Shown: in pieces, positions 5,667-45,155 of the stretch
How positions within the stretch are numbered: the stretch's first letter is position 1
How the letters are laid out: every line of letters begins with the position of its first letter
Assembly: GCA_001778985.1 (NCBI GenBank)
Contig: MFIU01000002.1
Coordinates: 1-55,825 of the forward strand
Source: Candidatus Giovannonibacteria bacterium RIFOXYD1_FULL_48_21
GTDB taxonomy: Bacteria; Patescibacteriota; Minisyncoccia; JACPKW01; UBA11713
Reading direction: 5' to 3'
DNA: 55,825 nucleotides
Position numbers and translations under genes: made by a program
Notes under the pieces: generated by a model
The model's input: only the letters and a program-made list of their open reading frames with translations
What the model was told of the DNA's origin: nothing
The model's database searches: none

Positions 5667-6368
5667 ATGGAAAATTCGAAAATCATAGAAAAAAATAAAA
5701 ATTCGATAATTTTAATTGAGGTGTTCATTCCCGAAGTTCCAGAGAGTGAAAAAGGTAAATTAAGTGTGCGCGGGACAGGATTTATAATTTCTCCAGATGG
5801 TCAGTTCATTACTTGTGCCCATGTATATAATCAGCTTAGTGAAAATGAAAAAAAACATCTCAGAGTAAATGTTCCTCATGAAATGGATTCAAAAGGCATT
5901 ACTCACTATAAGAGATACGGCGTCGAGTTGTTGAAACTTGATAATGAAAATGACGTTGCATTAATGAAGATTGTAGATAAGAATTCAGGTACCTTTTCTG
6001 TCATAAGTAAATTAGGTAATTCCGAAAGCGTTTCGGAAGGAGATGAAGTTATATTTCTTGGTTACCCGTTGGCTACCGAATTGCTTGCGTTAGGTTTTGG
6101 TATAACTATGACAACAAATAGTTGTATTATAAGTTCTGTTAAGAGACGTGGGATAGATGGATCGTTGCACTTCTTTCTGATTGATACACATACTAATAAC
6201 GGTTCTAGTGGTTCACCAGTATTTCTAAAATCTACAGGGGAGATTATCGGTATTGTTAGTGGTAGAATCTCTCAGAAGGTTGATTTACCAGACAGAAAAT
6301 TGGCAGATATACCAGCGAATCTCGGAATATGCAGACCAATAAATTATATTAAGGGGCTAATCAAATAA
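5667..6368 (+). CDS. trypsin-like (S1/S1C fold) serine peptidase with no signal peptide
   Basis: The catalytic-triad context is [18 protein letters not shown] (His), NDVALMKI (Asp) and [11 protein letters not shown] (Ser). The gene is visibly much more AT-rich than its neighbours. Confidence 0.75.
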
Positions 6369-26412: not shown

Positions 26413-29400
26413 TTGGAATCAAGGCAACACAACGTAGCCGACCTAATGAAGCGGCTTGGGCTTTCCAAGACCACGATTTTGCGTTGGGAAAAGGAAGGCA
26501 AGATACCGCCAGGACGCCGCGACGAGCTTGGCTGGCGCTGGTGGACCGAGGAGGAATTTGAGGGAATAGCAAAACTTACTTCTTCGGATTTTTCGAGGGA
26601 ATTTTTACCGAAACTTTCCAAAAAACCTTCAATAAAAGAAACGCCGCGTTTTACCTTTCCTGCCTTGCCGGCCTTGTCGGCAGACAGGCCGGCAGGCAGG
26701 CCTTCTTTTCGTACTTTCTTGGCGCCGGCTCTTTTGGCGGTTTTGGTTTTTAGCGCGGTCGCGGCTGATTTCGTTTCTTATTTCGAGAACGCGAGCTTCG
26801 TCGCCTCCGAGCGCCTTCAATACTCCGCTTTGTATCTGCGAAATCTAGTTCCGGCCAAACCCAGCGTCCAGTTTTCGTTCCGGCTCCCTGACGATTATTT
26901 TCTCGCCATGGGCCAGGACTTGAAGTCCTCGCTTCCGGAAATCGGCGCAGGCCTCCAAGACGGAATTTTTGAATTGCGGCGCTTGGTCGCCAATGTCGAA
27001 CCTCCAAGGTTCGACATTCGAATTTTGCGCCCAAGAAAATTTTCTCTTAGTCCCGGCTATTTTAGTCAAAGCGGCGCGCTTTTGGCAAATTTGACCGGCG
27101 AGGCCGAGAACTTTTTTTACCGCGTCGGCCAAACTTTAAACCGAATTTTTGATGAAAACAAACAATTTGTTTACTCGCTTTTTGCGCCTGCCTCGCCGGA
27201 AGGCGGGCCTCCAAATTTAACATCCGATGTTGGAGGAGAAACACCGGGCGTCGCTCCGGTTCTGTCTTCCGAGACCCAGTTTTTGCGTTTTGAGATTGAC
27301 TCTCTGCGTAAGGAGCTCGAAGCGCTTCGGGCCGCAGGAGTTCGTCTGGAAGGCGAAAAAGTAGTCGAGCGTATTTTTGAGCGGACTTTGGCCGAATTGC
27401 CTTCAGGCGACCTTGACGCGAAACTCGCTTCTTTGAATCAAGCCTTGCGCGAGGAGATTCTGACGGTCAGACGAGCCTTGGACGAAAAAACCCAGGCGAA
27501 CTTCAACGCCCTCGCGCTCACGCAGAGAATAAATACCCTGGGCCCGGTTTCAATTTCTTCTCCAACCATCTCAACTCCCACCATTACCGGTCAGGTGGAT
27601 AGTCTTACGGTGCGAACTCTGACCATTACCGGAAGCTGTTCCGGCTGCGGCGGCGGAAGTTCTAATACCAGCGGCTGGACCGATGACGGAACTATCGTCA
27701 GGCTCACTGATATCGGGGATTTGGTTGGGATCGGAACTTCAAGCCCTTACGCAAAATTGTCAGTGGTGGGAGAAGTCGTGGCAGCTTCCTTCACTGCGAC
27801 TTCCACCACCGCTACCTCAACTTTTTCCTGGGGAATTCAAACCCCGGCTTTAAATGTAACTTCGACAAGCGCGACTTCTACCTTTTCAAACGGCTTAAGA
27901 CTTTCAGGAGGCTGTTTTGAGCTTTCCAATGGCACCTGCGCTGGTTCAGGTGCTTCCATTGGCGGAGCAATTTCCGGAGGAACTTCGGGCTCTGTTCTTT
28001 TCGTGGACGCGAGCGCGAATCTGGCCCAAGACAACGCGAACCTTTTTTGGGATGACACGGGAAATATCCTAAGGGTTCTCAATGCCTCCAGCACCAATGC
28101 TTCGGTGATAGGCACTTTGACTATTGGCGGAACCGCGACCACGACCTTGTCAGGCAACACCGCCACCAGCACTTTCGCAGCCGGACTCGCTCTGACCGGC
28201 ACCTTGGATGTGAATAGCTCGACTGCCACTTCCACCTTTGCCAACGGCTTGAGGGTGGAAGGAGGCTGCGTCACTGTGGCTGGAGCATGCCTGACCAACC
28301 TGGGCCAGTCAATTGACCTGGCTTCTGAAGTCAGCGGCGTCCTGCCGATTGCGAATGGCGGCACCAACAATTCTTCAGCTTACACTTCTGGCTCTGTGAT
28401 TTTCTCAAATGGAACCTCTCTCACCCAGGACAATTCAAATTTCTTCTTTGACGACGCCAACAACCGGCTGGGAATCGGAACCACCTCTCCTTGGGGAATC
28501 CTTTCAGTGGAATCCTCTGCCGCGGCCGGAGCAACAAATCCCATCTTCGTGGTCTCTGACCAAGGGACCAGCACTCCCTTCCTGATCGTGGAAGGAAATC
28601 GAGGTTTTGTCGGGATTGGTACGACCACGCCGCAAGCCCAACTAGGTCTTAGTACTTTCTCCGGCTTCCCAAGCTTTATGGTTGGCTCTTCCACGACCCA
28701 GTTTTTGATTGACAAAAACGGCAACGTAGGCATCGGGACGACGGGGCCAGGGGCGGCACTTGATACAAAAATTACTTCTACTGCTGGACAAGGTACACTG
28801 ATTGCTCAATTTGGTTCTCAAACGTCCGCCAGAATCAGGCTGTACGATGAAACATCCACATTGGGTCCGGCAATAGATTTCAACGCTGGGAATGTTGGAC
28901 GAATCACTGGGGCAGGGAACATTGCAATAATGCCAACCAACAACGGCAACGTCGGCATCGGGACGACGAGTCCGGGGCAATTGCTCTCGGTCGCGGGGGA
29001 TATTTTGGGAAATAATATTATCGGTTCTTACTTTACAGCCACTTCGACGACCGCCACCAGCACTTTCGCAGCCGGACTCGCTCTGACCGGCACACTCGAC
29101 GTAAACAGCACTTCAGCCACGAGCACTTTCGCCAACGGCATCAGAATAGAAGGCGGGGGATTGACTGCTTCCACCCTCACTTCCTGCACAGCTCTGGAAA
29201 CGGATGCAAACGGAAATGTCCTTTGCGGTTCTGATGCCACGGGTTCAGGAGTAGGGATAGGCGACACAGTTACCTCCGGCACTACCGGCTCGATACTATT
29301 TGTCGGCTCCGGCCCCGTGTTAGCCCAGGACAACGCCAACCTTTTTTGGGATGACACCAACAACCGGCTGGGCATCGGAACGACGAGCCCGTGGGCAAAA

Positions 29401-31638
29401 CTTTCTGTAAATAATTACAGCTCCGGAGCTTCATCAGTTCCTCTGTTTACCGTAGCTTCTTCAACCGGAACTGGCGCAACTTCCACCGCGTTTATTATTA
29501 ATTCAGTCGGCAATATCGGCATCGGGACGACGAGTCCAAATGCTCTACTGCATCTTTTTTCAACAGTAGCTTCAAACAATAATCCCCAGTTGATTCTTCA
29601 AAATTATGCTGCCGGAGGTTATTTGCCCAGTATTTTATTTCAAGGCAATGAGGCCGGTTCACCAAATACTTATTCTGTTTCAAGAATAGTCGGCGGTTTT
29701 GAAGGTGGAGCAAATTGGTCAGATGCGGCTCTTGGTTTTGACGTGGGACAAACGTTGTCAAGGGTAATAACCCTTAAAGGTACCGGCAACGTCGGCATCG
29801 CTTCTACGACTCCTTTCTCTACTCTTTCCGTAAACGGTAACGTATGGCTTAACTCGAATATCCTAAACATCGCTTCTTCTTCTGCCTCCACTTTAACTGT
29901 TAATTATTTATCACGCGCGACTACCACAATTCCTTCCAATCAAATCTACGCCTGGTCAATCGCCACCTCCACCACCGCTTCTCCCTTGCTCACTTTCAAC
30001 ACCAATGGGCCCTACGCCACAACCTCAATAAACGGCGGGTTCGTAATCGATTCTGGAGCGGTTAATTATGATTCATCAAGCGGCATAATTTCCGCGGATT
30101 CAATTCAGACCGGGCCTATGGGTTTTGACACCGACGCCGGAATTGTTTCCTGGATTGACATGCCGGTCGCGACCACTTCGACTTCCAGAATTTCCATGAG
30201 CTATTCGGCGCAGATTGATTCAATTCCGATTCTGACGGTCTATGGAGAATCAACTGCGGGCGGAGGCGTTTCCACCACCACCGTGGGTATCGGCACAACT
30301 ACCCCGACCTGGCTTTTGCATCTTGCTTCCACCACGCCCTACCTCGCGCTCTCGGACACTGATGCCGGGCTCGACCAGAAGCACTGGCTCATTTCCAATC
30401 AATCCGGCTCCTTGAGATTCGGGACTTCCTCGGACGCGAATCCCTTTTCCACCAGCACCAATTTTATGCTCCAGAGGGGCGGGAACGCCGCGGTGCCGAA
30501 AGGCGCTTTCTGCGTGGATGACGATAACAGCGAGTGTCCGGTCGGTGCAATCCAGGGACGTTTGTACTCCATCAACGCCACGGTGCTTACGGACGACATC
30601 GCGGAGTTCATGCGCTCGGCAGAAAGCTTGGAGCCGGGGGATATCGTGATTCCTGATTCTGATTTCAAAAACAAGACCGCACGAAGTTACGAGCAGGAGC
30701 GAAGAAGCCGTGATTTGGGAACCACACTCGGCTTGGACGAGATTGGAGTTAAAAAATCTGTCAAACCTTACGAGTCCGCCATCCTTGGAGTTATTTCCAC
30801 CAAGCCGGGAATCTCGCTTGGAGGCTTCGAACCCACTCTGCAGGATTATGAAGTTACGCTCGCCGGACGGGTTCCGGTGAAAGTTTCGCTCGAGGGCGGC
30901 GCGATTAAAATCGGAGACAGGATTACTTCGAGTCCGATACCGGGAGTGGGCATGAAGGCAACAAGTTCCGGAATCACCATCGGAATTGCGCTTGAAGATT
31001 TCAACCCTTCGACAGGCTCAGGGCAAGCGTCCTCCACCGAGAAAATTCTGGTTTTTGTAAATCTCGGCTACTCCAAACTTGACGCCTCCATTCAAGGCGG
31101 CGAGATTGTCGAGCCCTCGGCTGTAGCCCTACGGGCGAAGCTGGACGGCGAAGGAGAATCGGCTTTCTGGGGGATTGACCAAACTTCCGGACGCATTAAA
31201 TTCATCTCGCCCTTGGACCTCAACGATTTTGATATCGTGAACGTCCGAGCGATTCTGGGCTCCGGAGGGAAATGGTCGATTGATTTCTCCGGCCGCCTCA
31301 CAGCCGAGGAAGTGTATACCAAAAAACTTTGTCTGGAAGAAGTCTGCGTGACCAAAGAGGAGCTGAAGAAACTTCTGGACTTAGCCGGTTCGGCGAGCCA
31401 GGCTTCGTCGCCTGAGGAGCAAACCTCCGATGAAGGTTTACCGGAGGAGGGGCCTCCGGAAGAGCCCCAGCCCTCCTCAACCGCACCCGGGAAAACATCC
31501 GATGTTTTAACTTCTTCAACATCGGATGTTGAGGAGGGTGCGGTTTCACCGGGCGAAGAGAGCCCGCCGCCGGAGCCGCCTCCTGAGCCCGAGCCTCCTC
31601 CAGTTTCTGATACCAGTACCACCACTCCGGCAACATGA
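26413..31638 (+). CDS. giant (1,741 aa) membrane-anchored protein: N-terminal MerR-type HTH, one TM helix, coiled coil, tail-fibre-like Thr/Ser/Gly-rich repeats, and a Pro/Glu-rich tail
   Basis: It is a single uninterrupted ORF. The HTH is LGLSKTTILRWEKEGKIPPGRRDELGWRWWTEEEF and the TM segment is FLAPALLAVLVFSAVAADFV. There are nine G(I/V)G(T/S)(T/S)xP..L(S/H)(V/L) motifs and six ATSTF(A/S)xG(L/I) motifs. The start is TTG 26413 or ATG 26446. Confidence 0.8.
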   Translation: MESRQHNVADLMKRLGLSKTTILRWEKEGKIPPGRRDELGWRWWTEEEFEGIAKLTSSDFSREFLPKLSKKPSIKETPRFTFPALPALSADRPAGRPSFRTFLAPALLAVLVFSAVAADFVSYFENASFVASERLQYSALYLRNLVPAKPSVQFSFRLPDDYFLAMGQDLKSSLPEIGAGLQDGIFELRRLVANVEPPRFDIRILRPRKFSLSPGYFSQSGALLANLTGEAENFFYRVGQTLNRIFDENKQFVYSLFAPASPEGGPPNLTSDVGGETPGVAPVLSSETQFLRFEIDSLRKELEALRAAGVRLEGEKVVERIFERTLAELPSGDLDAKLASLNQALREEILTVRRALDEKTQANFNALALTQRINTLGPVSISSPTISTPTITGQVDSLTVRTLTITGSCSGCGGGSSNTSGWTDDGTIVRLTDIGDLVGIGTSSPYAKLSVVGEVVAASFTATSTTATSTFSWGIQTPALNVTSTSATSTFSNGLRLSGGCFELSNGTCAGSGASIGGAISGGTSGSVLFVDASANLAQDNANLFWDDTGNILRVLNASSTNASVIGTLTIGGTATTTLSGNTATSTFAAGLALTGTLDVNSSTATSTFANGLRVEGGCVTVAGACLTNLGQSIDLASEVSGVLPIANGGTNNSSAYTSGSVIFSNGTSLTQDNSNFFFDDANNRLGIGTTSPWGILSVESSAAAGATNPIFVVSDQGTSTPFLIVEGNRGFVGIGTTTPQAQLGLSTFSGFPSFMVGSSTTQFLIDKNGNVGIGTTGPGAALDTKITSTAGQGTLIAQFGSQTSARIRLYDETSTLGPAIDFNAGNVGRITGAGNIAIMPTNNGNVGIGTTSPGQLLSVAGDILGNNIIGSYFTATSTTATSTFAAGLALTGTLDVNSTSATSTFANGIRIEGGGLTASTLTSCTALETDANGNVLCGSDATGSGVGIGDTVTSGTTGSILFVGSGPVLAQDNANLFWDDTNNRLGIGTTSPWAKLSVNNYSSGASSVPLFTVASSTGTGATSTAFIINSVGNIGIGTTSPNALLHLFSTVASNNNPQLILQNYAAGGYLPSILFQGNEAGSPNTYSVSRIVGGFEGGANWSDAALGFDVGQTLSRVITLKGTGNVGIASTTPFSTLSVNGNVWLNSNILNIASSSASTLTVNYLSRATTTIPSNQIYAWSIATSTTASPLLTFNTNGPYATTSINGGFVIDSGAVNYDSSSGIISADSIQTGPMGFDTDAGIVSWIDMPVATTSTSRISMSYSAQIDSIPILTVYGESTAGGGVSTTTVGIGTTTPTWLLHLASTTPYLALSDTDAGLDQKHWLISNQSGSLRFGTSSDANPFSTSTNFMLQRGGNAAVPKGAFCVDDDNSECPVGAIQGRLYSINATVLTDDIAEFMRSAESLEPGDIVIPDSDFKNKTARSYEQERRSRDLGTTLGLDEIGVKKSVKPYESAILGVISTKPGISLGGFEPTLQDYEVTLAGRVPVKVSLEGGAIKIGDRITSSPIPGVGMKATSSGITIGIALEDFNPSTGSGQASSTEKILVFVNLGYSKLDASIQGGEIVEPSAVALRAKLDGEGESAFWGIDQTSGRIKFISPLDLNDFDIVNVRAILGSGGKWSIDFSGRLTAEEVYTKKLCLEEVCVTKEELKKLLDLAGSASQASSPEEQTSDEGLPEEGPPEEPQPSSTAPGKTSDVLTSSTSDVEEGAVSPGEESPPPEPPPEPEPPPVSDTSTTTPAT
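26659..26700 (+). repeat. GC-rich palindromic element (class B) in-frame in the giant ORF
   Basis: The arms CCTGCCTTGCCGGCC (26659-26673) and GGCCGGCAGGCAGG (26687-26700) are inverted repeats with one indel. The loop contains TGTC..GACA. The element encodes PALPALSADRPAGR, between the HTH and the TM helix. Confidence 0.7.
28159..28202 (+). repeat. 44-bp exact intragenic direct repeat (second copy at 29050-29093)
   Basis: ACCGCCACCAGCACTTTCGCAGCCGGACTCGCTCTGACCGGCAC is identical at both positions. It encodes TATSTFAAGLALTGT. Confidence 0.9.
31005..31029 (+). repeat. 25-bp interspersed element CCCTTCGACAGGCTCAGGGCAAGCG (copy 1, in the giant ORF, read as PSTGSGQA)
   Basis: It is identical to 31961-31985 and sits in the same reading frame in both genes. 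Variants occur at 1-16 and 47449-47465. Confidence 0.9.
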
Positions 31639-32153
31639 GCGTAAAAATCAAAATAATAATTTTAGTTTCAATCCTCATCGCGGCTGGCGCCACGGCTTTT
31701 TGGCTCTGGCCGGAGAAAACGGCGCCGGAGGCAGGAGGAGCGGATAAAAATGAATATAAATCCGAATTGTTCAATTTTTCTTTTACGCCTCCCAACTCTA
31801 ATCTCCAGGAATTTGACGACGAAAACGGGCACGTGATTTTGGGAAGTTCTTTTCAGATTTTCATAACTCCGTTTGACGAAACAGGGCCGATTACTCCGGA
31901 ACGGATTAAAAAAGATCTGCCGAACGCGGTTGTTGAAAATCCAACTCCGACAAAAGTAGGCCCTTCGACAGGCTCAGGGCAAGCGGACGCCTTGAGCTTT
32001 ATCGGGCAGGGAGACGGATTTAAAACCGCCGAAGTCTGGTTTGTCTGGCCGCCCGAACCCTACCCGAATGGGAATTACCTGTATCAGATAACGGCGAAGG
32101 TGGAAGACGCAAAATTGCTGGAAGGGATTATTTCAACATGGAGCTTCCAATAA
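31635..32153 (+). CDS. small membrane-anchored hypothetical protein (172 aa)
   Basis: Its ATG overlaps the giant ORF's stop (ATGA), which suggests translational coupling. The N-terminal TM segment is IIILVSILIAAGATAFWLW. No recognisable domain was found. Confidence 0.7.
   Translation: MSVKIKIIILVSILIAAGATAFWLWPEKTAPEAGGADKNEYKSELFNFSFTPPNSNLQEFDDENGHVILGSSFQIFITPFDETGPITPERIKKDLPNAVVENPTPTKVGPSTGSGQADALSFIGQGDGFKTAEVWFVWPPEPYPNGNYLYQITAKVEDAKLLEGIISTWSFQ
31961..31985 (+). repeat. 25-bp interspersed element, copy 2 (read as PSTGSGQA in the 172-aa ORF)
   Basis: It matches 31005-31029 exactly, while the flanks are unrelated. Confidence 0.9.
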
Positions 32154-32154
32154 A

Positions 32155-32183
32155 TTTTCAATTTTGCAATTTATAATTTTCAA
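32155..32183. repeat. left AT-rich inverted repeat flanking the four-helix-bundle gene
   Basis: TTTTCAATTTTGCAATTTATAATTTTCAA matches the reverse complement of 32586-32613 (TTATCAATTTACAATTTACAATTTTCAG) at about 24 of 28 positions by hand alignment. Confidence 0.55.
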
Positions 32184-32193
32184 TCAATTTTTA

Positions 32194-32562
32194 ATGAACC
32201 AATTTTCAAATCAGAAATACGATTTAGAAGAAAGAACAGCGCAATTCGGTGAAGCTATAATTAAGCTTTGTCGAAGCGTCAATCAAGATGTTATTGCGAA
32301 ACCGATTGTTTCCCAATTGATTCGTTCGGCTACCAGTATCGGCGCGAACTACATGGAAGCAAATGGCGCAAGTTCCAAAAAGGACTTTATCAATAAAATA
32401 TTTATTTGCAAAAAAGAAGCGCAAGAGACAAAGCACTGGCTACGCATGTTGGTCGTTTGTGCGCCTGATAAAAACTTAGAGGCAAGAAAGCTGTGGCAAG
32501 AATGCCAAGAGCTGACTTTGATATTCCAAAAAATCGCTTCGTCAGCGCGAAATAAAGTTTGA
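32194..32562 (+). CDS. four-helix-bundle protein (23S rRNA intervening-sequence protein / DGR Avd-like family)
   Basis: YDLEERT..F...I......V........SQLIRSATSIGANYMEANGA.SKKDF..K...C.KEA.ET.HWL is typical of the TIGR02436/PF05635 family. The start is taken at ATG 32194; the ORF track uses TTG 32164. Confidence 0.8.
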   Translation: MNQFSNQKYDLEERTAQFGEAIIKLCRSVNQDVIAKPIVSQLIRSATSIGANYMEANGASSKKDFINKIFICKKEAQETKHWLRMLVVCAPDKNLEARKLWQECQELTLIFQKIASSARNKV

Positions 32563-34766
32563 AAATTATTATGTTTGAGAATTCACTGAAAATTGTAAAT
32601 TGTAAATTGATAATTCCGCTTTTGGTTGTTTTGGTTTTTGTATTGTCGCCAAAAGCGGTTGATGCCGCCTTACTCATAAACCGCCCTCTTTACATCGGTC
32701 TAACCTCCGGCCTCGTCGGCTACTGGTCTTTTGACGGGCCGGATGTTGCCGGGATTCCCAGCACAGCAACCACACCTGGGACAGTTTACGATCGCTCTGG
32801 CAACGGAAATAACGGGCTATACTGGAATGCCACTGGCACGCCTCCCGCCATCGGCCGCATCGGCCAGGCGCTGGAATTCAAAGGAGCGCCCACTCGTACG
32901 TACGTAAAAGTTTCCAATTTCTGTTCACAGATTTCTAATAATGCGGGCGCTATCTCGGTTTGGATAAAAGCTGCAGTAATTACAACTGTTGTGAATGACA
33001 ACCATTATATTTTCAATTGCGGTTCGGGCCACAGCCCCTCCTTAGTGATTATAGGCGGGAGCACCCCAGCGCTTAGGTTTATAAAAAGTACTAGCAATAG
33101 TAACGTAATGTCGTCACCCGCCGCTAATCGTTGGTATTATATAGTTGCTACATGGGATACAAACGTACAACGCGTTTATGTTGATTCGGTTCAAACAGAT
33201 TCTGATGCTATAGCTTCAATATCTCCTTCTGGAGATGCAGCGATAGGCACTTTTGCTACCATTCCTCAAAATAACAATTATTTCAACGGCATCATTGACG
33301 ACTTCCGCGTCTACAACCGCGCGCTAACGGCCGACGAAATCAAGCGGCTATACAAAATCGGGGCGACGCTGAAAGTCAATAAACCCAGCTATACCGGTCT
33401 TGATTCCGGCCTCGTCGGATACTGGTCTTTTGACGGGCCGGATATGTACAACAACACTGCGCTTGACCGCTCCGGGCAGGGCAACAACGGCACCCTCACC
33501 AACGGCCCCAAACGCGCTATCGGCAAAATCGGCCAGGCGCTGGAGTTTGACGCCTTTTCTGGGACGCATTCTCATGTACAAGTAGGAGATAAAGCGAGTT
33601 TAGACTTTGGAACAAGCGACTTTACGCTTTCTGCGTGGATAAAAGCCAAAGCCACTCAGGATTCATTTCCATCAATAATACATAAAGGGGCGACCGCAGG
33701 AAGTGGTTCTCCAGGTTATTGGTGGATCCTCTCTTCTGGCATATCAAAATTTTTTATGAGCAACAGTACGAATAGAGTAGAAAGTATAGCGATTACAAAT
33801 CTTAGAGACAATAGCTGGCATCATGTTTCTGTAGTGGTTGACCGCGACGGCATGACAACTCATTACATCGATGGAATAGTTGATGACGCAGATAATTTAA
33901 GCTCTTACAGTGCCAGCGATATAAATGCAACAGAAGAGTTTAGTATAGGTGGAAGAGATACCGGAGGCTCGTTGGAATTTACCGGCCTCATTGATGACGT
34001 CCGCATCTACAACCGCGAGCTTTCTCCGGACGAAATCAAGCGGCTCTACCGCATCGGGGCGACGCTGAAGGTTAATAAACCCCTTGCCACCGGCTCTCTG
34101 ACCTCCGGCCTCGTCGGCTATTGGTCTTTTGACGGGCCGGATATGGCGGGAAACACGGCTTTTGACCGAAGCGGGCAGGGCAACAACGGTACGCTCACCA
34201 ACGGCCCTGTTCGCACTCTCGGCAAAATCGGCCAGGCGCTGGATTTTGATGGGAGTAATGATTATGTGGGTATGGGCGATCCTACAAGCGGCATTTTGGA
34301 TTTTTCTGATACTCAAAGCTTTACAATTTCTGTGTGGTCATATCGTACCGGTCCAAATACTATTGCTCAGCGATTAGTTGCTAAAAATCAAACTGGAGCA
34401 GCACAAAACGGTTATCGTTTGATTTATGAGACAGATGATAAGTACACGATGCGTGTTGATGACTCCGTTAATGGGGTTCAGGTTACCTCATCAGCTATGA
34501 ACACATTAAATATCTGGCACCATGTCGTTGGCGTCATTGATAGAGCAAATCAAATTTTGCGGCTATATGTTGACGGTGTGGAAAATGGAACCCCTCTTGA
34601 TATTTCAGCCGTAGGAAGCCTAGCAAATGCACTAAACTTCGATATAGGAGTTGCTAGCAACTTAACGGCTGGTAGTTTTGTGGTTGGTAAAATTGACGAT
34701 GTCCGCGTCTATAACAGGGTATTAACTAGCGATGAAATAAAACGTTTATATAATCTTGGCCGATGA
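32559..34766 (+). CDS. secreted or anchored protein with three tandem LamG (concanavalin-A-like lectin) modules
   Basis: It has an N-terminal hydrophobic anchor. The junction LVGYWSFDGPD...DRSG.GNNG......IGKIGQAL.FDG occurs three times and IDD.R.YNR.L...EIKRLY occurs three times. The start is TTG 32559 or ATG 32571. Confidence 0.8.
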   Translation: MKIIMFENSLKIVNCKLIIPLLVVLVFVLSPKAVDAALLINRPLYIGLTSGLVGYWSFDGPDVAGIPSTATTPGTVYDRSGNGNNGLYWNATGTPPAIGRIGQALEFKGAPTRTYVKVSNFCSQISNNAGAISVWIKAAVITTVVNDNHYIFNCGSGHSPSLVIIGGSTPALRFIKSTSNSNVMSSPAANRWYYIVATWDTNVQRVYVDSVQTDSDAIASISPSGDAAIGTFATIPQNNNYFNGIIDDFRVYNRALTADEIKRLYKIGATLKVNKPSYTGLDSGLVGYWSFDGPDMYNNTALDRSGQGNNGTLTNGPKRAIGKIGQALEFDAFSGTHSHVQVGDKASLDFGTSDFTLSAWIKAKATQDSFPSIIHKGATAGSGSPGYWWILSSGISKFFMSNSTNRVESIAITNLRDNSWHHVSVVVDRDGMTTHYIDGIVDDADNLSSYSASDINATEEFSIGGRDTGGSLEFTGLIDDVRIYNRELSPDEIKRLYRIGATLKVNKPLATGSLTSGLVGYWSFDGPDMAGNTAFDRSGQGNNGTLTNGPVRTLGKIGQALDFDGSNDYVGMGDPTSGILDFSDTQSFTISVWSYRTGPNTIAQRLVAKNQTGAAQNGYRLIYETDDKYTMRVDDSVNGVQVTSSAMNTLNIWHHVVGVIDRANQILRLYVDGVENGTPLDISAVGSLANALNFDIGVASNLTAGSFVVGKIDDVRVYNRVLTSDEIKRLYNLGR
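32586..32613. repeat. right AT-rich inverted repeat flanking the four-helix-bundle gene
   Basis: CTGAAAATTGTAAATTGTAAATTGATAA lies within the 5' end of the LamG ORF. See 32155-32183. Confidence 0.55.
32706..34142 (+). repeat. LamG module junction blocks recurring with a 699-bp period
   Basis: TCCGGCCTCGTCGG(C/A)TA(C/T)TGGTCTTTTGACGGGCCGGAT occurs at 32706, 33405 and 34104, a spacing of 699 and 699 bp. ATCGGCCAGGCGCTGGA is also present three times. Confidence 0.9.
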
Positions 34767-34773
34767 GCAAATT

Positions 34774-34894
34774 GTTCGCATCTATTTACCCCGTTAGAAA
34801 TAGGACGCGCACGCAAGCGTCCGCGACTTCTAACGGGGCAAGCCGCGCGCTTTCGGCGGATGAAATCAAGCGGCTATACAACCTTGGGAGATAG
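34774..34894 (+). pseudogene. relic 3' end of a LamG module (VRIY / SRALSADEIKRLYNLGR*) interrupted by a palindromic element
   Basis: GTTCGCATCTAT (VRIY) lies at 34774-34785 and AGC CGC GCG CTT TCG GCG GAT GAA ATC AAG CGG CTA TAC AAC CTT GGG AGA TAG at 34841-34894. It is GC-rich and shares 20 nt exactly with module 1 (GAAATCAAGCGGCTATACAA). The two parts are separated by a 55-nt insert. Confidence 0.7.
34789..34838 (+). repeat. palindromic element (class A), copy 2
   Basis: The termini are CCCCGTTAGAAAT ... ACTTCTAACGGGG, with an inner hairpin GGACGC-N8-GCGTCC. The termini match the rpsI copy (3691-3764). Confidence 0.8.
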
Positions 34895-34926
34895 TAATAA
34901 GGACTAAAATATGCTATGATTAAAAA

Positions 34927-35175
34927 ATGGGAGCTCATAAAACCAAAGAAGCAATCCCATTTCGCCCAAGCCTTTTTTGGGACGCGGATCCGGCCACAAT
35001 AGACCCGGATAAAAATGCCAAGTATATTATTGAGCGGATAATGGATTTTGGTAATGATCAGGAAGCCCGCTGGATATATAGGCGATATCCTCGCCCGTTT
35101 CTTCGTGATGTTGTAAAAAAATCGCGGAGTCTTCATCCGCAATCCAGAGTATTGTGGGAAGCTCTGACGAAGTAA
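34927..35175 (+). CDS. small protein partnered with an AbiEii-type nucleotidyltransferase (putative antitoxin)
   Basis: The 82-aa product has the motif LFWDADPATIDPDKNAKYIIERIMDFG. It overlaps the downstream toxin-like gene by 22 nt. By my recollection this family commonly precedes AbiEii/DUF1814 genes. Confidence 0.6.
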   Translation: MGAHKTKEAIPFRPSLFWDADPATIDPDKNAKYIIERIMDFGNDQEARWIYRRYPRPFLRDVVKKSRSLHPQSRVLWEALTK

Positions 35176-35831
35176 CAAAAGAGTGGCATACGGATGCCCT
35201 TCCGGCGGAAACAAAACGCGCGCTGGATTTTTTGTCTCGTGCGGAATGGTTGCGCCAATCTTCGTGGTATCTTGCCGGCGGCACTGCTTTAGCATTGCAT
35301 GTTGGCCATCGGGAATCGCTTGATCTTGATTTTTTTACACAAGATAAGTCTGTAGAAGTTTCTCTTATTTCTGGTCATTTTTCAAACGATGTATGGCAAA
35401 CGGAGATTCTTCGTGAGGGAACGTTGTACGGGAAGTTCCTCGGCGCAAAAATAAGCTTTATTTTGTATCCATTTTTTCACCGAAGATCAGCGCCCCGTGA
35501 ATATGGAGCAATTCGGGTGCTCGCGCCTTCTGATGTGGCAGTTATGAAAATAATAGCCATTAGCCAGCGCGGCAAGAAACGCGATTTTGTAGATCTCTAC
35601 TGGTATGCGCTTCATCAAGAGCCAATACTAGATGTGATTCGCCGTTTGCCGGACCAATATCCAACTGTTGCTCATGATTTCCACCATATTCTAAAAAGCA
35701 TGATGTATTTTGCAGATGCGGAAGCCGATCCTATGCCTACCTTATTTTTCAAGGCAGATTGGAAAACGATTAAAGCATATTTTCAAAAAGTGGTTCCTGA
35801 AATTACAAAAGAATTGCTCCGGTTAAAATAA
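35154..35831 (+). CDS. nucleotidyltransferase AbiEii/AbiGii toxin family protein
   Basis: WYLAGGTALALHVGHRESLDLDFF is the NTase signature of the family. The start is GTG 35154. Confidence 0.75.
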   Translation: MGSSDEVTKEWHTDALPAETKRALDFLSRAEWLRQSSWYLAGGTALALHVGHRESLDLDFFTQDKSVEVSLISGHFSNDVWQTEILREGTLYGKFLGAKISFILYPFFHRRSAPREYGAIRVLAPSDVAVMKIIAISQRGKKRDFVDLYWYALHQEPILDVIRRLPDQYPTVAHDFHHILKSMMYFADAEADPMPTLFFKADWKTIKAYFQKVVPEITKELLRLK

Positions 35832-43405: not shown

Positions 43406-44076
43406 TTTTAGGGAAAAATCCGGAAAAATTTCTAAAAAAGTTTTTCTCCGCCGCCTCGGCCCAGGCCTTTCTTTTGGTCGGCGGCGACGAAGGCCTGGAG
43501 AATCTTTTGATTCGGTTCTTGAGCCGCGGAGCCCAGACTGAATTTGACCTTCGGGTTTACGGAGGAGATTCGCTCAAGATTGACGAAGCCCGCGAAATCC
43601 ATCGGGCCGCGGGCCAAAGCGCTCTGGCCGGAGCGAAAATATTTCTGCTTAAAAATAATTTTATCGCGCCGGAAGCCGAGGCCACGCTTTTGAAGACTTT
43701 GGAGGAACCCTACCCTGATACCTATTTCATCATCTCGCTCGCTTCCGAGGCCGCGCTCTCGCCCCCGCTTCTCTCCCGGCTTACCGTTTTTAAAACCTCT
43801 CCGCCCGAGCTTGAAAAAAACAAAAAAGCTTGGAAGCCTGGTTTGGGCGAAGCCGCCTCGCTCGCCAAGGACCGAAGGGAAACCGAGGATTTTTTCAGGC
43901 GGCTCGAATGGTGGCTCGAGGAAAAACTTCAGGCCGCACCGCGGGAAAAGTTTCGGCTCTTGAGAAATTTTTTGGAAGACCTGCTCCAGACCAAAAAACT
44001 TTTTCTTGAAAAAACTTATTCCAGCCGCATGCTCTTGGAGCATCTGATTATCTCTAAATTCTACCTGGAGCCATGA
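43402..44076 (+). CDS. holB: DNA polymerase III delta'-like subunit (no Walker A)
   Basis: Motifs are AFLLVGGDE, K.D..REI and A.A.LLKTLEEPYPDTYFI....... ..LLSRLTVF. Confidence 0.6.
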   Translation: MILGKNPEKFLKKFFSAASAQAFLLVGGDEGLENLLIRFLSRGAQTEFDLRVYGGDSLKIDEAREIHRAAGQSALAGAKIFLLKNNFIAPEAEATLLKTLEEPYPDTYFIISLASEAALSPPLLSRLTVFKTSPPELEKNKKAWKPGLGEAASLAKDRRETEDFFRRLEWWLEEKLQAAPREKFRLLRNFLEDLLQTKKLFLEKTYSSRMLLEHLIISKFYLEP

Positions 44077-45155
44077 GCCCCGTTAGAAATAAATCCCGCG
44101 GGGCGATAACGCTGGGAATGGTGATCGCGGTCGTGATTATCGCCGTGATTCTGATAGTGACTTTGATTGTCTTGTGGCCGGTTTTTAAAGGAGAGAAAGG
44201 GGTGAGCCCCAGCCAGAGCGTCTTATTCCGGAGCGAAGACGGCGCGAACACCTGGAAACCCTTGGAGAAGTTCCCGGGCGGAGAAATTTTGACTTTAGAT
44301 TTTGACGCCCGCGACCCGTCTACTCTTTTGGTCGGGACGAGGCGCCGAGGCCTGTGGCAGGGTAAAACCTCCGGCGAAGAGTGGCGGCAATTTCCCGGAG
44401 GGCTCGGCGAGAACTCCCAAATTTTCGACTTACTGGATTTGCCCACCGCCGAAAAGCTCATCGCTTTGGTTTTATTTTCAAATCGCGGCCGGGTCATCAA
44501 GCTTGAGGAAGATACCAGGACCGAGCTCTTGTTCACGCCGCTTGAGCGCTTTGCTTATTTCCAGGGAGACCTGACGCCGGACGGAAAATTGAGGGTGATT
44601 GGTTCGGACGGCGGTTTTTATGAATCGCGAAATCAAGGCGCCACTTGGCGCTCCCTGGCTCGTTTTCAAGAAGGTTTGGCGCTGATGGCGGTAAACTCCG
44701 CCAATGCTGGCGAAATTTGGGTGTTGGATTCCAGGGGTTCACTCTTTTACAGCCAGAGTGGGGGAATTTCCTGGAAAGATTTGACCGACGGCTTAAAAAA
44801 TTTTCAGGGCGCCATGGAGGCAGAAGTTATTTTATTCGAACCGAGAGCCGGCCTTCTTTATCACGGCTCCAGGCACGGACTTTTGAAGTCGTCTGACCGC
44901 GGCCGGAGCTGGGAGAGGGTTAATCTTACTTTGGCTCCGGAGGTGCTTCCGGTTTCGGCTTTGGCGGCGGATCCTTCCGACCCGAATAAGCTCATCGTCG
45001 GCGCTCAAGGCCAGCTTTATATTTCTCAAGACGGCGGGATAAGCTGGCGAGGGATTCAGCTGGCTTCAAGCGGCAGTATCGCCGCGATTTTATTCGACCC
45101 TAAAAATTCGAACAATGTTTTCATCGGCCTTAAGACCGGCCAGCGCTTGAGATGA
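44073..45155 (+). CDS. membrane-anchored BNR/Asp-box repeat beta-propeller protein
   Basis: It has an N-terminal TM segment and five SxDxGxxW boxes (SEDGANTW, SRNQGATW, SQSGGISW, SSDRGRSW, SQDGGISW). Codons 2-6 are encoded by a partial class A element (44078-44090). Confidence 0.7.
   Translation: MSPVRNKSRGAITLGMVIAVVIIAVILIVTLIVLWPVFKGEKGVSPSQSVLFRSEDGANTWKPLEKFPGGEILTLDFDARDPSTLLVGTRRRGLWQGKTSGEEWRQFPGGLGENSQIFDLLDLPTAEKLIALVLFSNRGRVIKLEEDTRTELLFTPLERFAYFQGDLTPDGKLRVIGSDGGFYESRNQGATWRSLARFQEGLALMAVNSANAGEIWVLDSRGSLFYSQSGGISWKDLTDGLKNFQGAMEAEVILFEPRAGLLYHGSRHGLLKSSDRGRSWERVNLTLAPEVLPVSALAADPSDPNKLIVGAQGQLYISQDGGISWRGIQLASSGSIAAILFDPKNSNNVFIGLKTGQRLR

Follow-up and report, generated by a model that had tools for sequence, protein, structure and literature searches.

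The 55,825-nt window analyzed here (contig MFIU01000002.1, Candidatus Giovannonibacteria bacterium RIFOXYD1_FULL_48_21) is ordinary chromosome, not phage, from a Parcubacteria bacterium of groundwater; among the genes on it are hrcA-grpE-dnaK-dnaJ, mur, mreBCD, PBP2, tRNA synthetases, priA, fmt and def. One of its genes encodes three tandem Laminin_G_3 (LamG) modules, each with a hypervariable core set between conserved junctions that form its frame. The family to which this gene belongs probably diversifies by homologous recombination in the conserved frames, with whole cores swapped for those of other members; the donors would be other strains, other species or paralogs. Family members are mosaics of nearly identical and unalignable segments, a fragment past the stop codon of the window gene is orthologous to the live 3′ end of a relative, and the gene is stable in the sampled population.

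Module architecture and relatives at the locus

The gene product is likely a secreted or membrane-anchored surface protein with three concanavalin A-like (LamG) lectin modules and putative ligand binding, and a lectin or adhesin role in attachment is predicted. An N-terminal hydrophobic leader precedes the three modules, and a profile search matched PF13385 to three stretches of the protein with 244.8 bits (cutoff 27.6). The open reading frame (ORF) opens with TTG, and the ATG at 32571 is the start picked by most gene callers. The AlphaFold2 (AF2) model has a mean predicted local distance difference test score of 84.8 and consists of a helix at residues 11–25 and three β-sandwiches, with disordered linkers at residues 267–275 and 500–507. 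The best Foldseek matches are neurexin LNS1-6 arrays, laminin LG, the trans-sialidase lectin domain and clostridial neurotoxin BoNT Hc-N. The model and these matches identify an LG/LNS-like β-sandwich (jelly-roll) fold. The module frame corresponds to the first four β-strands, the last strand and the C-terminal helix, plus the flexible linker, and the hypervariable core to the other ~10 strands (~140 amino acids, aa).

A 39-nt block, TCCGGCCTCGTCGG(C/A)TA(C/T)TGGTCTTTTGACGGGCCGGAT, occurs on the + strand at 32706, 33405 and 34104 with 0, 1 and 1 mismatches. Its copies are exactly 699 bp apart and in frame, and 0 matches are expected in shuffled sequence; the positions and the period are those given in an earlier note on this DNA. 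That note had also described the 17-mer ATCGGCCAGGCGCTGGA and the module ends as almost identical copies. They do repeat (repeat families D1, D4 and D5), but the identity of the module ends was overstated: the ends of modules 1 and 2 are 83% identical over 105 nt and the N-junctions of modules 2 and 3 are 84% identical over 146 nt. The three cores share no obvious nucleotide similarity, as reported, and their 36–41% nt and 21–28% aa identity to each other is family-level resemblance only. Module 3 ends in the recoded AT-type version of the C-junction that the note had picked out (GC content at third codon positions, GC3, of 0.33), and its AGG / AGA TTA TAT codon style recurs in three other family genes, again in their terminal modules.

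When species-representative genomes were scanned with 21 nt of the junction block, two other genomes gave one match each, Ca. Giovannonibacteria RIFCSPLOWO2_02_FULL_45_28 (L010) and Parcubacteria GW2011_GWC1_45_13 (L011). The L010 neighborhood matches the window in the end of a giant surface protein gene, a small conserved gene, a variable small gene, the three-module LamG gene and AbiEii-like genes. The 727-aa LamG protein of L010 has the leader end, junction peptides and linkers of the window protein, and the N1 junction blocks are 87–97% nt identical between the two; all three cores are unrelated (18–30% aa identity). The L010 gene ends in GC-type codons and has no relic. The two ends of the 39-mer form a 7-nt inverted repeat (TCCGGCC...GGCCGGA), which is not preserved in the L010 copies and was therefore taken as incidental. 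The L011 neighborhood is arranged as in the window, including a four-helix-bundle gene, and its contig stops inside module 1.

Comparison of the three loci separates the history of a core from that of its surroundings. The module 1 cores of L010 and L011 are 98.2% nt identical and the start of their C-junctions 100%, with N-junctions at 84%, divergent leaders and flanking genes at 76–80%. The window and L011 are 83–88% identical in the flanks, and their module 1 cores are unrelated. Therefore cores can be very stable and can occupy a foreign context. This pattern indicates that core 1 of the window has been exchanged relative to L010 and L011.

At least two replacements would separate the window from its relatives at this locus. 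In the first, module 1 would have received its present core, which differs wholly from the one common to L010 and L011 (98% nt between those two). In the second, module 3 would have gained an AT-type core that brought along its own C-terminus and stop codon. This second event would have its left crossover just past FDGSNDYV, after 25 nt common to module 3 of the window and module 3 of L010. The right join would be non-homologous, so that the old GC-type 3′ end was left behind, with the ~22 last codons of the old gene staying as a 124-bp relic. A 55-nt hairpin would have been inserted later, splitting the relic.

The relic (34771–34894) starts four to seven nt after the gene stop (TGA, 34764–34766). 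It is the GC-rich second copy of the C-terminus that the earlier note had found past the stop, and it holds a hairpin that the note did not mention. Positions 34843–34929 align to L010 4542–4628, with the downstream 'aaatatgctat' included. Alignment to both the live 3′ end of L010 and the DNA beyond it argues that the relic is the ancestral 3′ end of the LamG gene, displaced as had been proposed and orthologous to the live L010 end. Among 8 family genes checked, the relic is confined to the window gene. The hairpin that splits it is missing in L010 and present in all contigs of the same population. Coordinates are collected in Table 1.

Table 1. Features of the LamG gene and of the DNA just past its stop codon. 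L010 and L011 are the two relatives named in the text; D1 and D4 are repeat families.
Feature	Position	Strand	Description
LamG gene	32559–34766	+	735 aa from TTG at 32559; 731 aa from ATG at 32571
Module 1 N-junction	32706–32879	+	SGLVGYWSFDGPD to GQALEF; 39-mer copy 1; GC-rich, GC3 0.64; lineage-specific 8-aa insertion
Module 1 core	32880–33290	+	AT-rich, GC3 0.35; no nt alignment to L010/L011 module 1 core, flanks 75–88% identical
Module 1 C-junction and linker	33291–33404	+	IIDDFRVYNRALTADEIKRLY, linker KIGATLKVNKP...; families D1, D4; GC3 0.69; 34-nt exact run with L010
Module 2 N-junction	33405–33548	+	39-mer copy 2; GC3 0.79; closest match is L010 module 3 N-junction
Module 2 core	33549–33986	+	AT-rich, GC3 0.34; nearest among 120 best-scoring homologs 39% aa identical
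Module 2 C-junction and linker	33987–34103	+	families D1, D4; GC3 0.75; linker disordered in model, residues 500–507
Module 3 N-junction	34104–34247	+	39-mer copy 3; GC3 0.67; 44-nt exact run with L010 module 2
Module 3 core	34248–34691	+	AT-rich, GC3 0.31; first 25 nt (FDGSNDYV) common with L010 module 3, remainder unrelated
Module 3 C-junction and TGA stop	34692–34766	+	IDDVRVYNRVLTSDEIKRLYNLGR; AT-codon 'terminal' type; GC3 0.33
Relic 5′ piece	34771–34785	+	ATTGTTCGCATCTAT, ATT GTT CGC ATC TAT (IVRIY); out of the gene's frame; matches GTC CGC ATC TAC of L010 gene end
Nested hairpin, 55–56 nt	34786–34841		arms TTACCCCGTTAGAA / TTCTAACGGGGCAA, inner GGACGC...GCGTCC stem; inverted repeat I3; fold z-score −3.0
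Relic 3′ piece	34841–34894	+	AGC CGC GCG ... TAG, SRALSADEIKRLYNLGR*; GC-type codons; tblastn match 34841–34891

Known identities were considered for the hairpin and rejected. Integron attC sites have the cores RYYYAAC ... GTTRRRY and are recombined by the IntI integrase. The hairpin reads GTTAGAA ... TTCTAAC, the reverse of the attC core order, it has no match in Rfam, and the + strand has no T-run. These features exclude a known RNA, a terminator and attC, and the reversed core order, the missing Rfam match and the lack of an integrase in the ORFs scanned likewise exclude an integron cassette. A 15-nt string of the hairpin, CCCCGTTAGAAATA (34789–34803), recurs at 44078–44092, at the start of a BNR/Sortilin-like gene at 44073. 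This second copy also precedes a complementary CGGGG; the 11-mer match alone is expected ~0.03 times per window.

Mosaicism, codon identity and stability of the gene

The family is large, with 2500 matches among 8000 candidates scored and 60,180 representative proteins at E ≤ 0.001, and its proteins carry 3 to 26 modules. Mosaic relationships recur among them. The pairs P0075/P0086, P0084/P0090, P0032/P0084, P0072/P0077, P0082/P0116, P0009/P0025, P0014/P0030 and P0007/P0098 are 90–100% identical in frames or whole modules and 15–25% identical in single cores. The same is seen in DNA. From the module 1 C-junction onward, L027 and L028 align over 1494 nt at 99.3% identity, and their first cores are unalignable. 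L031 and L033, which occupy the same locus, are 95% identical over the 3′ 1621 nt and 78–85% in the 5′ flank and frames, with cores 1 and 2 unalignable.

Identity of the junctions was measured as the fraction of codons that agree wherever the amino acids agree, and the family's own junction codon usage provided the null. The fraction is ~0.4 in cores and 0.5–0.75 in whole junctions; neighboring orthologous genes of the window and L010 give 0.39–0.60. A 12-codon N-terminal block stands out: against an expected 0.48, the fraction is 0.88 in the window gene, 0.82 in L010 and 0.84 when the two genes are compared. In the 20-codon C block, modules 1 and 2 alone have 12/15 identical codons. Because codon identity here exceeds the protein-constraint null, the N-terminal block and the module 1/module 2 boundary have been homogenized or recently shared in this clade. 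Short-tract gene conversion may keep the N-terminal block uniform. The earlier claim that junction identity goes beyond purifying selection holds for these two segments. It does not hold elsewhere: synonymous differences are common, junction copies inside one gene are at the random level in most other genomes, and selection at the protein level suffices.

These synonymous differences are what would be expected if a tandem triplication had been followed by purely vertical divergence, with rapid point mutation and diversifying selection erasing similarity between the cores, purifying selection maintaining the frames and no exchange of cassettes. Junction peptides of unrelated genomes are conserved although their synonymous codons vary freely, the L027 and L028 N-junctions are identical in aa sequence yet only 86% identical in DNA, and synonymous codons of the whole C block in the window gene differ as chance predicts (0.48 vs 0.45). 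Vertical divergence is nevertheless improbable. It does not explain a core held at 98% between flanks of 76–80% while the window core is unrelated between flanks of 83–88%, a comparison that already points to incongruent histories of core and frame. Nor does it explain identity that jumps from 99–100% to unalignable within single genes, and point mutation cannot produce the relic of a displaced 3′ end.

A natural variant of the window gene may capture the exchange of one core. P0002 (724 aa) and the window protein are 100% identical in modules 1 and 2 and in the module 3 N-junction; right after NGPVR the variant departs into an unrelated core 3, rejoins at NRVLTSDEIKRLYNLGR and ends in the same 17 aa. 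It was assembled from reads at the protein level (source SRC, SRR3989344) and is the sole variant of this exact gene. As a single-core variant it is suggestive only.

Several observations weigh against core exchange by recombination in the frames. The longest exact identity runs between modules of the window gene are 17–25 nt, a marginal length for exchange by RecA. Short metagenomic contigs are the source of some mosaic pairs, and these could be chimeras of different strains. P0002 could itself be chimeric because it exists at the protein level only and its core was not recovered elsewhere: look-up of the exact protein gave no contig, a metagenome scan for the alternative core gave only relatives of ≤34% identity, and the best match to this core in another comparison was 48%. 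A word-index protein search with this core gave 18 candidates without returning P0002 itself and was uninformative. No donor was found for any window core, the best relatives being 38–47% aa identical. For core 3, HMMER over 1.84 billion representatives, ranked by summed multi-domain score, gave nothing above ~40% except a fragment of the gene itself. Finally, the gene is invariant. Across the nine independent contigs compared, its DNA (32100–35200) is 99.96–100% identical; over the longer stretches that these loci have in common with the window, identity is 99.7–100%.

This invariance in the sampled population makes exchange an evolutionary-timescale process, with no demonstrated active switch. 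With that restriction, exchange through the frames accounts best for the mosaics. RecA-type recombination would act on exact runs of 17–44 nt, and DNA uptake or paralogs would supply the cores. The proposal that the junctions serve as homology arms is upheld to the extent that whole cores are swapped and the breakpoints fall within the junction blocks or at their edges. Its other half, an active diversification device encoded at the locus, is not.

Such a device would be a programmed high-frequency switch of the pilE/pilS or vlsE type, in which silent LamG cassettes are copied in through the junction blocks. Variable segments flanked by conserved blocks, the P0002 variant and the several population contigs that end in or near the gene all fit this picture. 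The expected archive is missing from the window, though: outside the gene, its 55 kb have no other LamG sequence, junction block or silent cassette, and the species-representative scan found the block just once in each of two other genomes. Structural variants, likewise foreseen in the earlier note, are absent among the nine contigs, and the identical 731-aa protein occurs on at least 24 contigs (ENA, JGI and NCBI assemblies from different assemblers). No integrase or recombinase was found in precomputed Pfam matches for 22571–44766 or in 30 further ORFs. A programmed switch is thus very improbable.

Several independent contigs break at or near the LamG gene. L009 ends at window position 34765, and L006 and L008 begin at 32338 and 32421. 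The P0122 contig stops at IDDVRIYN of module 2 and L011 at IDEFRFYN of module 1, so that some breaks fall exactly at junction blocks or at the stop. The breaks could reflect unassembled strain variants, or low coverage only.

GC3 oscillation along the modules

The N-junctions of the window gene have a GC3 of 0.64–0.79, the internal C-junctions 0.69–0.75 and the cores 0.31–0.35; the other genes of the window (~45) lie mostly at 0.50–0.66. The contrast between GC-rich junctions and AT-rich cores described earlier therefore survives quantitative analysis. It resides almost wholly at third codon positions, and GC content at first and second positions is nearly the same in junctions and cores. The shift is mainly from C to T, with C3 at 0.45 in junctions and T3 at 0.41–0.44 in cores. 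The contrast cannot be read as the trace of one event, since it is a family-wide positional feature: the same oscillation is present in 9/9 family genes examined from other genomes (genome GC 42–56%).

A column profile over 25 modules locates the transitions. GC3 is 0.6–0.9 from the linker through GQAL and falls sharply at FDGxNDYV although these residues are conserved. It stays at 0.2–0.4 across the core, the conserved H, YxDG and IG included, and climbs again at FxGxIDDVR. Viral contigs often carry LamG_3 modules with the motifs GLVGxWSFD and DDVRIYNR, and there GC3 moves in the same direction but more weakly, with a mean difference of 0.14 vs 0.26 in Candidate Phyla Radiation (CPR) genes (p about 1e-11). 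This comparison was anchored on the C-motif; strict motif segmentation had caught just 9 modules.

Two causes of the oscillation were examined and set aside. Codon bias linked to conservation is excluded: conserved residues carry no GC3 excess in ordinary orthologous genes of these genomes, and those inside the cores have AT-ending codons. AT-rich foreign donor genomes are not favored, the same internal pattern being present in every family gene examined. Candidate causes are GC-biased gene conversion in segments that still pair, decay of non-recombining, fast-turnover cores to an AT-rich equilibrium, and selection on the arms. These can be joined in a tentative and on balance doubtful proposal that the oscillation is a recombination footprint: frames alone would still pair, GC-biased gene conversion or selection for GC-rich arms would keep their C-ending codons, and cores that never pair would drift to an AT-rich mutational equilibrium. 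If this holds, the CPR and phage family, very large at 60,180 representative clusters, would consist of natural exchangeable lectin cassettes whose homology arms are readable from codon composition. The family-wide GC3 periodicity is the most unusual element of the locus. It makes core boundaries predictable from the GC3 profile, and cores could be used as natural domain swaps for mapping ligand or host specificity, and it offers a tractable test case for biased gene conversion within single bacterial genes.

Targeted hypermutation of the cores, by a diversity-generating retroelement (DGR)-like system or another AT-biased mutator, might be thought to yield both their divergence and their low GC3, given that their third positions are T-rich, that GC3 drops sharply at a fixed, conserved column and that an Avd-like four-helix-bundle gene (PF05635) lies immediately upstream. 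The nature of the differences makes this hard to credit. The cores differ by indels and down to 20% aa identity, not at adenines, one core is 98% identical across species, and in L010 the place of the four-helix-bundle gene is taken by an unrelated small one. The whole window has no second copy of a core outside the gene that could act as a template repeat (blastn, word size 7), and no reverse transcriptase (RVT) is among the Pfam matches for the ORFs scanned (22571–44766 and the 30 further ORFs). The earlier note was right to distinguish this locus from DGR mutagenesis.

An assembly artefact, with contigs jumping between LamG genes at repeated junction blocks, has a negligible chance of being the explanation, even though junction repeats exist and the L011 and P0122 contigs end inside junctions: SPAdes, MEGAHIT, IDBA-type and JGI assemblies of many samples give the identical 3.1-kb sequence, and exact repeats within the gene are ≤25 nt, far under the k-mers in the contig names (k127, k141).

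Neighboring genes and known systems

A gene for a giant surface-type protein (26413–31638, 1741 aa; weak N-terminal MerR/HTH match) precedes the LamG gene in the window, L010, L011 and L027. In the first three loci a small conserved gene of 172–209 aa (window 31635–32153), itself mosaic among them, stands between the two. The 24-nt sequence CCTTCGACAGGCTCAGGGCAAGCG (peptide PSTGSGQA) occurs in frame in two different genes, at 31009 and 31965, and the near-palindromic AACATCCGATGTT (TSDV on either strand) occurs three times, at 27220, 31495 and 31519. Both resemble short repeat elements that have inserted into coding regions; the small conserved gene of L010 and L011 has extra copies of short repeats (GKTSDVESPKTSDVEE).

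The slot directly upstream of the LamG gene is variable. The window (32164–32562) and L011 (684–1055) both have a PF05635 gene here (23S_rRNA_IVP/Avd family, four-helix bundle), AT-rich with a GC3 of 0.39. The PF05635 family also occurs outside DGRs. In L010 the slot holds an unrelated 134-aa gene (2031–2435), whose product we take to resemble the GxxExxY / PD-(D/E)XK small proteins that are also found in rRNA intervening sequences. Directly past the relic, DUF6922 and AbiEii nucleotidyltransferase genes (34927–35831) form a type IV toxin-antitoxin-like pair that is AT-rich with a GC3 of 0.38–0.40; AbiEii genes are also downstream of the LamG genes of L010 and L029.

Two genes elsewhere in the window are out of place. 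A trypsin-like peptidase gene (5667–6368, GC3 0.28) lies between grpE and dnaK in a chaperone operon with a GC3 of 0.5–0.65 and looks like an insertion. On the − strand beside a tRNA gene, 9443–10186 matches the TraT family of enterobacterial complement-resistance lipoproteins (PF05818, 187.9 bits) over its full length, which is unexpected for a Parcubacteria chromosome.

A life attached to other microbes is assumed for CPR/Patescibacteria, and LamG/concanavalin-type surface proteins have repeatedly been named as candidate attachment factors (PMC11310336). The literature searched gave no account of how these CPR surface proteins evolve. The locus is best read as a case of mosaic surface-protein evolution with C-terminal displacement, which is a known kind of process.

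The closest parallel is C-terminal displacement in the Rhs (and CdiA) proteins of Enterobacteria (Jackson et al. 2009, PMC2935791), where a conserved, GC-richer part is the substrate of recombination. In the rhs model the variable ends lack homology to each other and arrive by lateral transfer; the new end brings its own stop, and the old end is shunted downstream as a silent fragment that keeps a piece of conserved sequence and shows as a GC peak (PMC2935791). The LamG gene likewise has a displaced old 3′ end with conserved sequence downstream of the live gene. The LamG gene lies outside the rhs family because it has no YD repeats and no toxin/immunity pair: its only Pfam families are LamG-type, it lacks a toxin tip and an immunity gene, and DUF6922 and AbiEii genes follow it. 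The variable unit also differs from that of Rhs, being an internal lectin core that would be replaceable at any of three positions and not the C-terminus alone. The LamG relic is small (~22 codons) and has no orphan core, which suggests that most of the old module was deleted, not shunted.

In Neisseria pilE/pilS, Borrelia vlsE and Anaplasma msp2, segments between short conserved blocks are exchanged non-reciprocally and alter a surface protein. Conserved blocks bound the LamG variable segments in the same way. Unlike those systems, the LamG gene has no silent archive in the 55-kb window and does not vary among the population contigs compared; its donors are apparently other genomes or expressed paralogs, acting on an evolutionary timescale. 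The beads-on-a-string array of β-sandwich modules resembles the mosaic receptor-binding and tail-fiber genes of phages and the tandem LamG/LNS arrays of neurexin and laminin LG, but the window is chromosomal, unlike the phage genes, and the GC3 contrast is about twice as strong in CPR genes.

The CPR DGRs diversify surface proteins in the same group of organisms. The LamG gene resembles their targets in encoding a diversified surface protein with predicted ligand binding, and an adjacent gene belongs to the Avd family (PF05635), which is not confined to DGRs. The locus departs from them in lacking a reverse transcriptase among the ORFs scanned, a template repeat in the window and an adenine-specific pattern, and its target fold is LamG and not C-type lectin. 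Lectin cores that act as exchangeable units between species-level genomes, with the frames fixed, would provide a route to rapid change in binding specificity without a retroelement.

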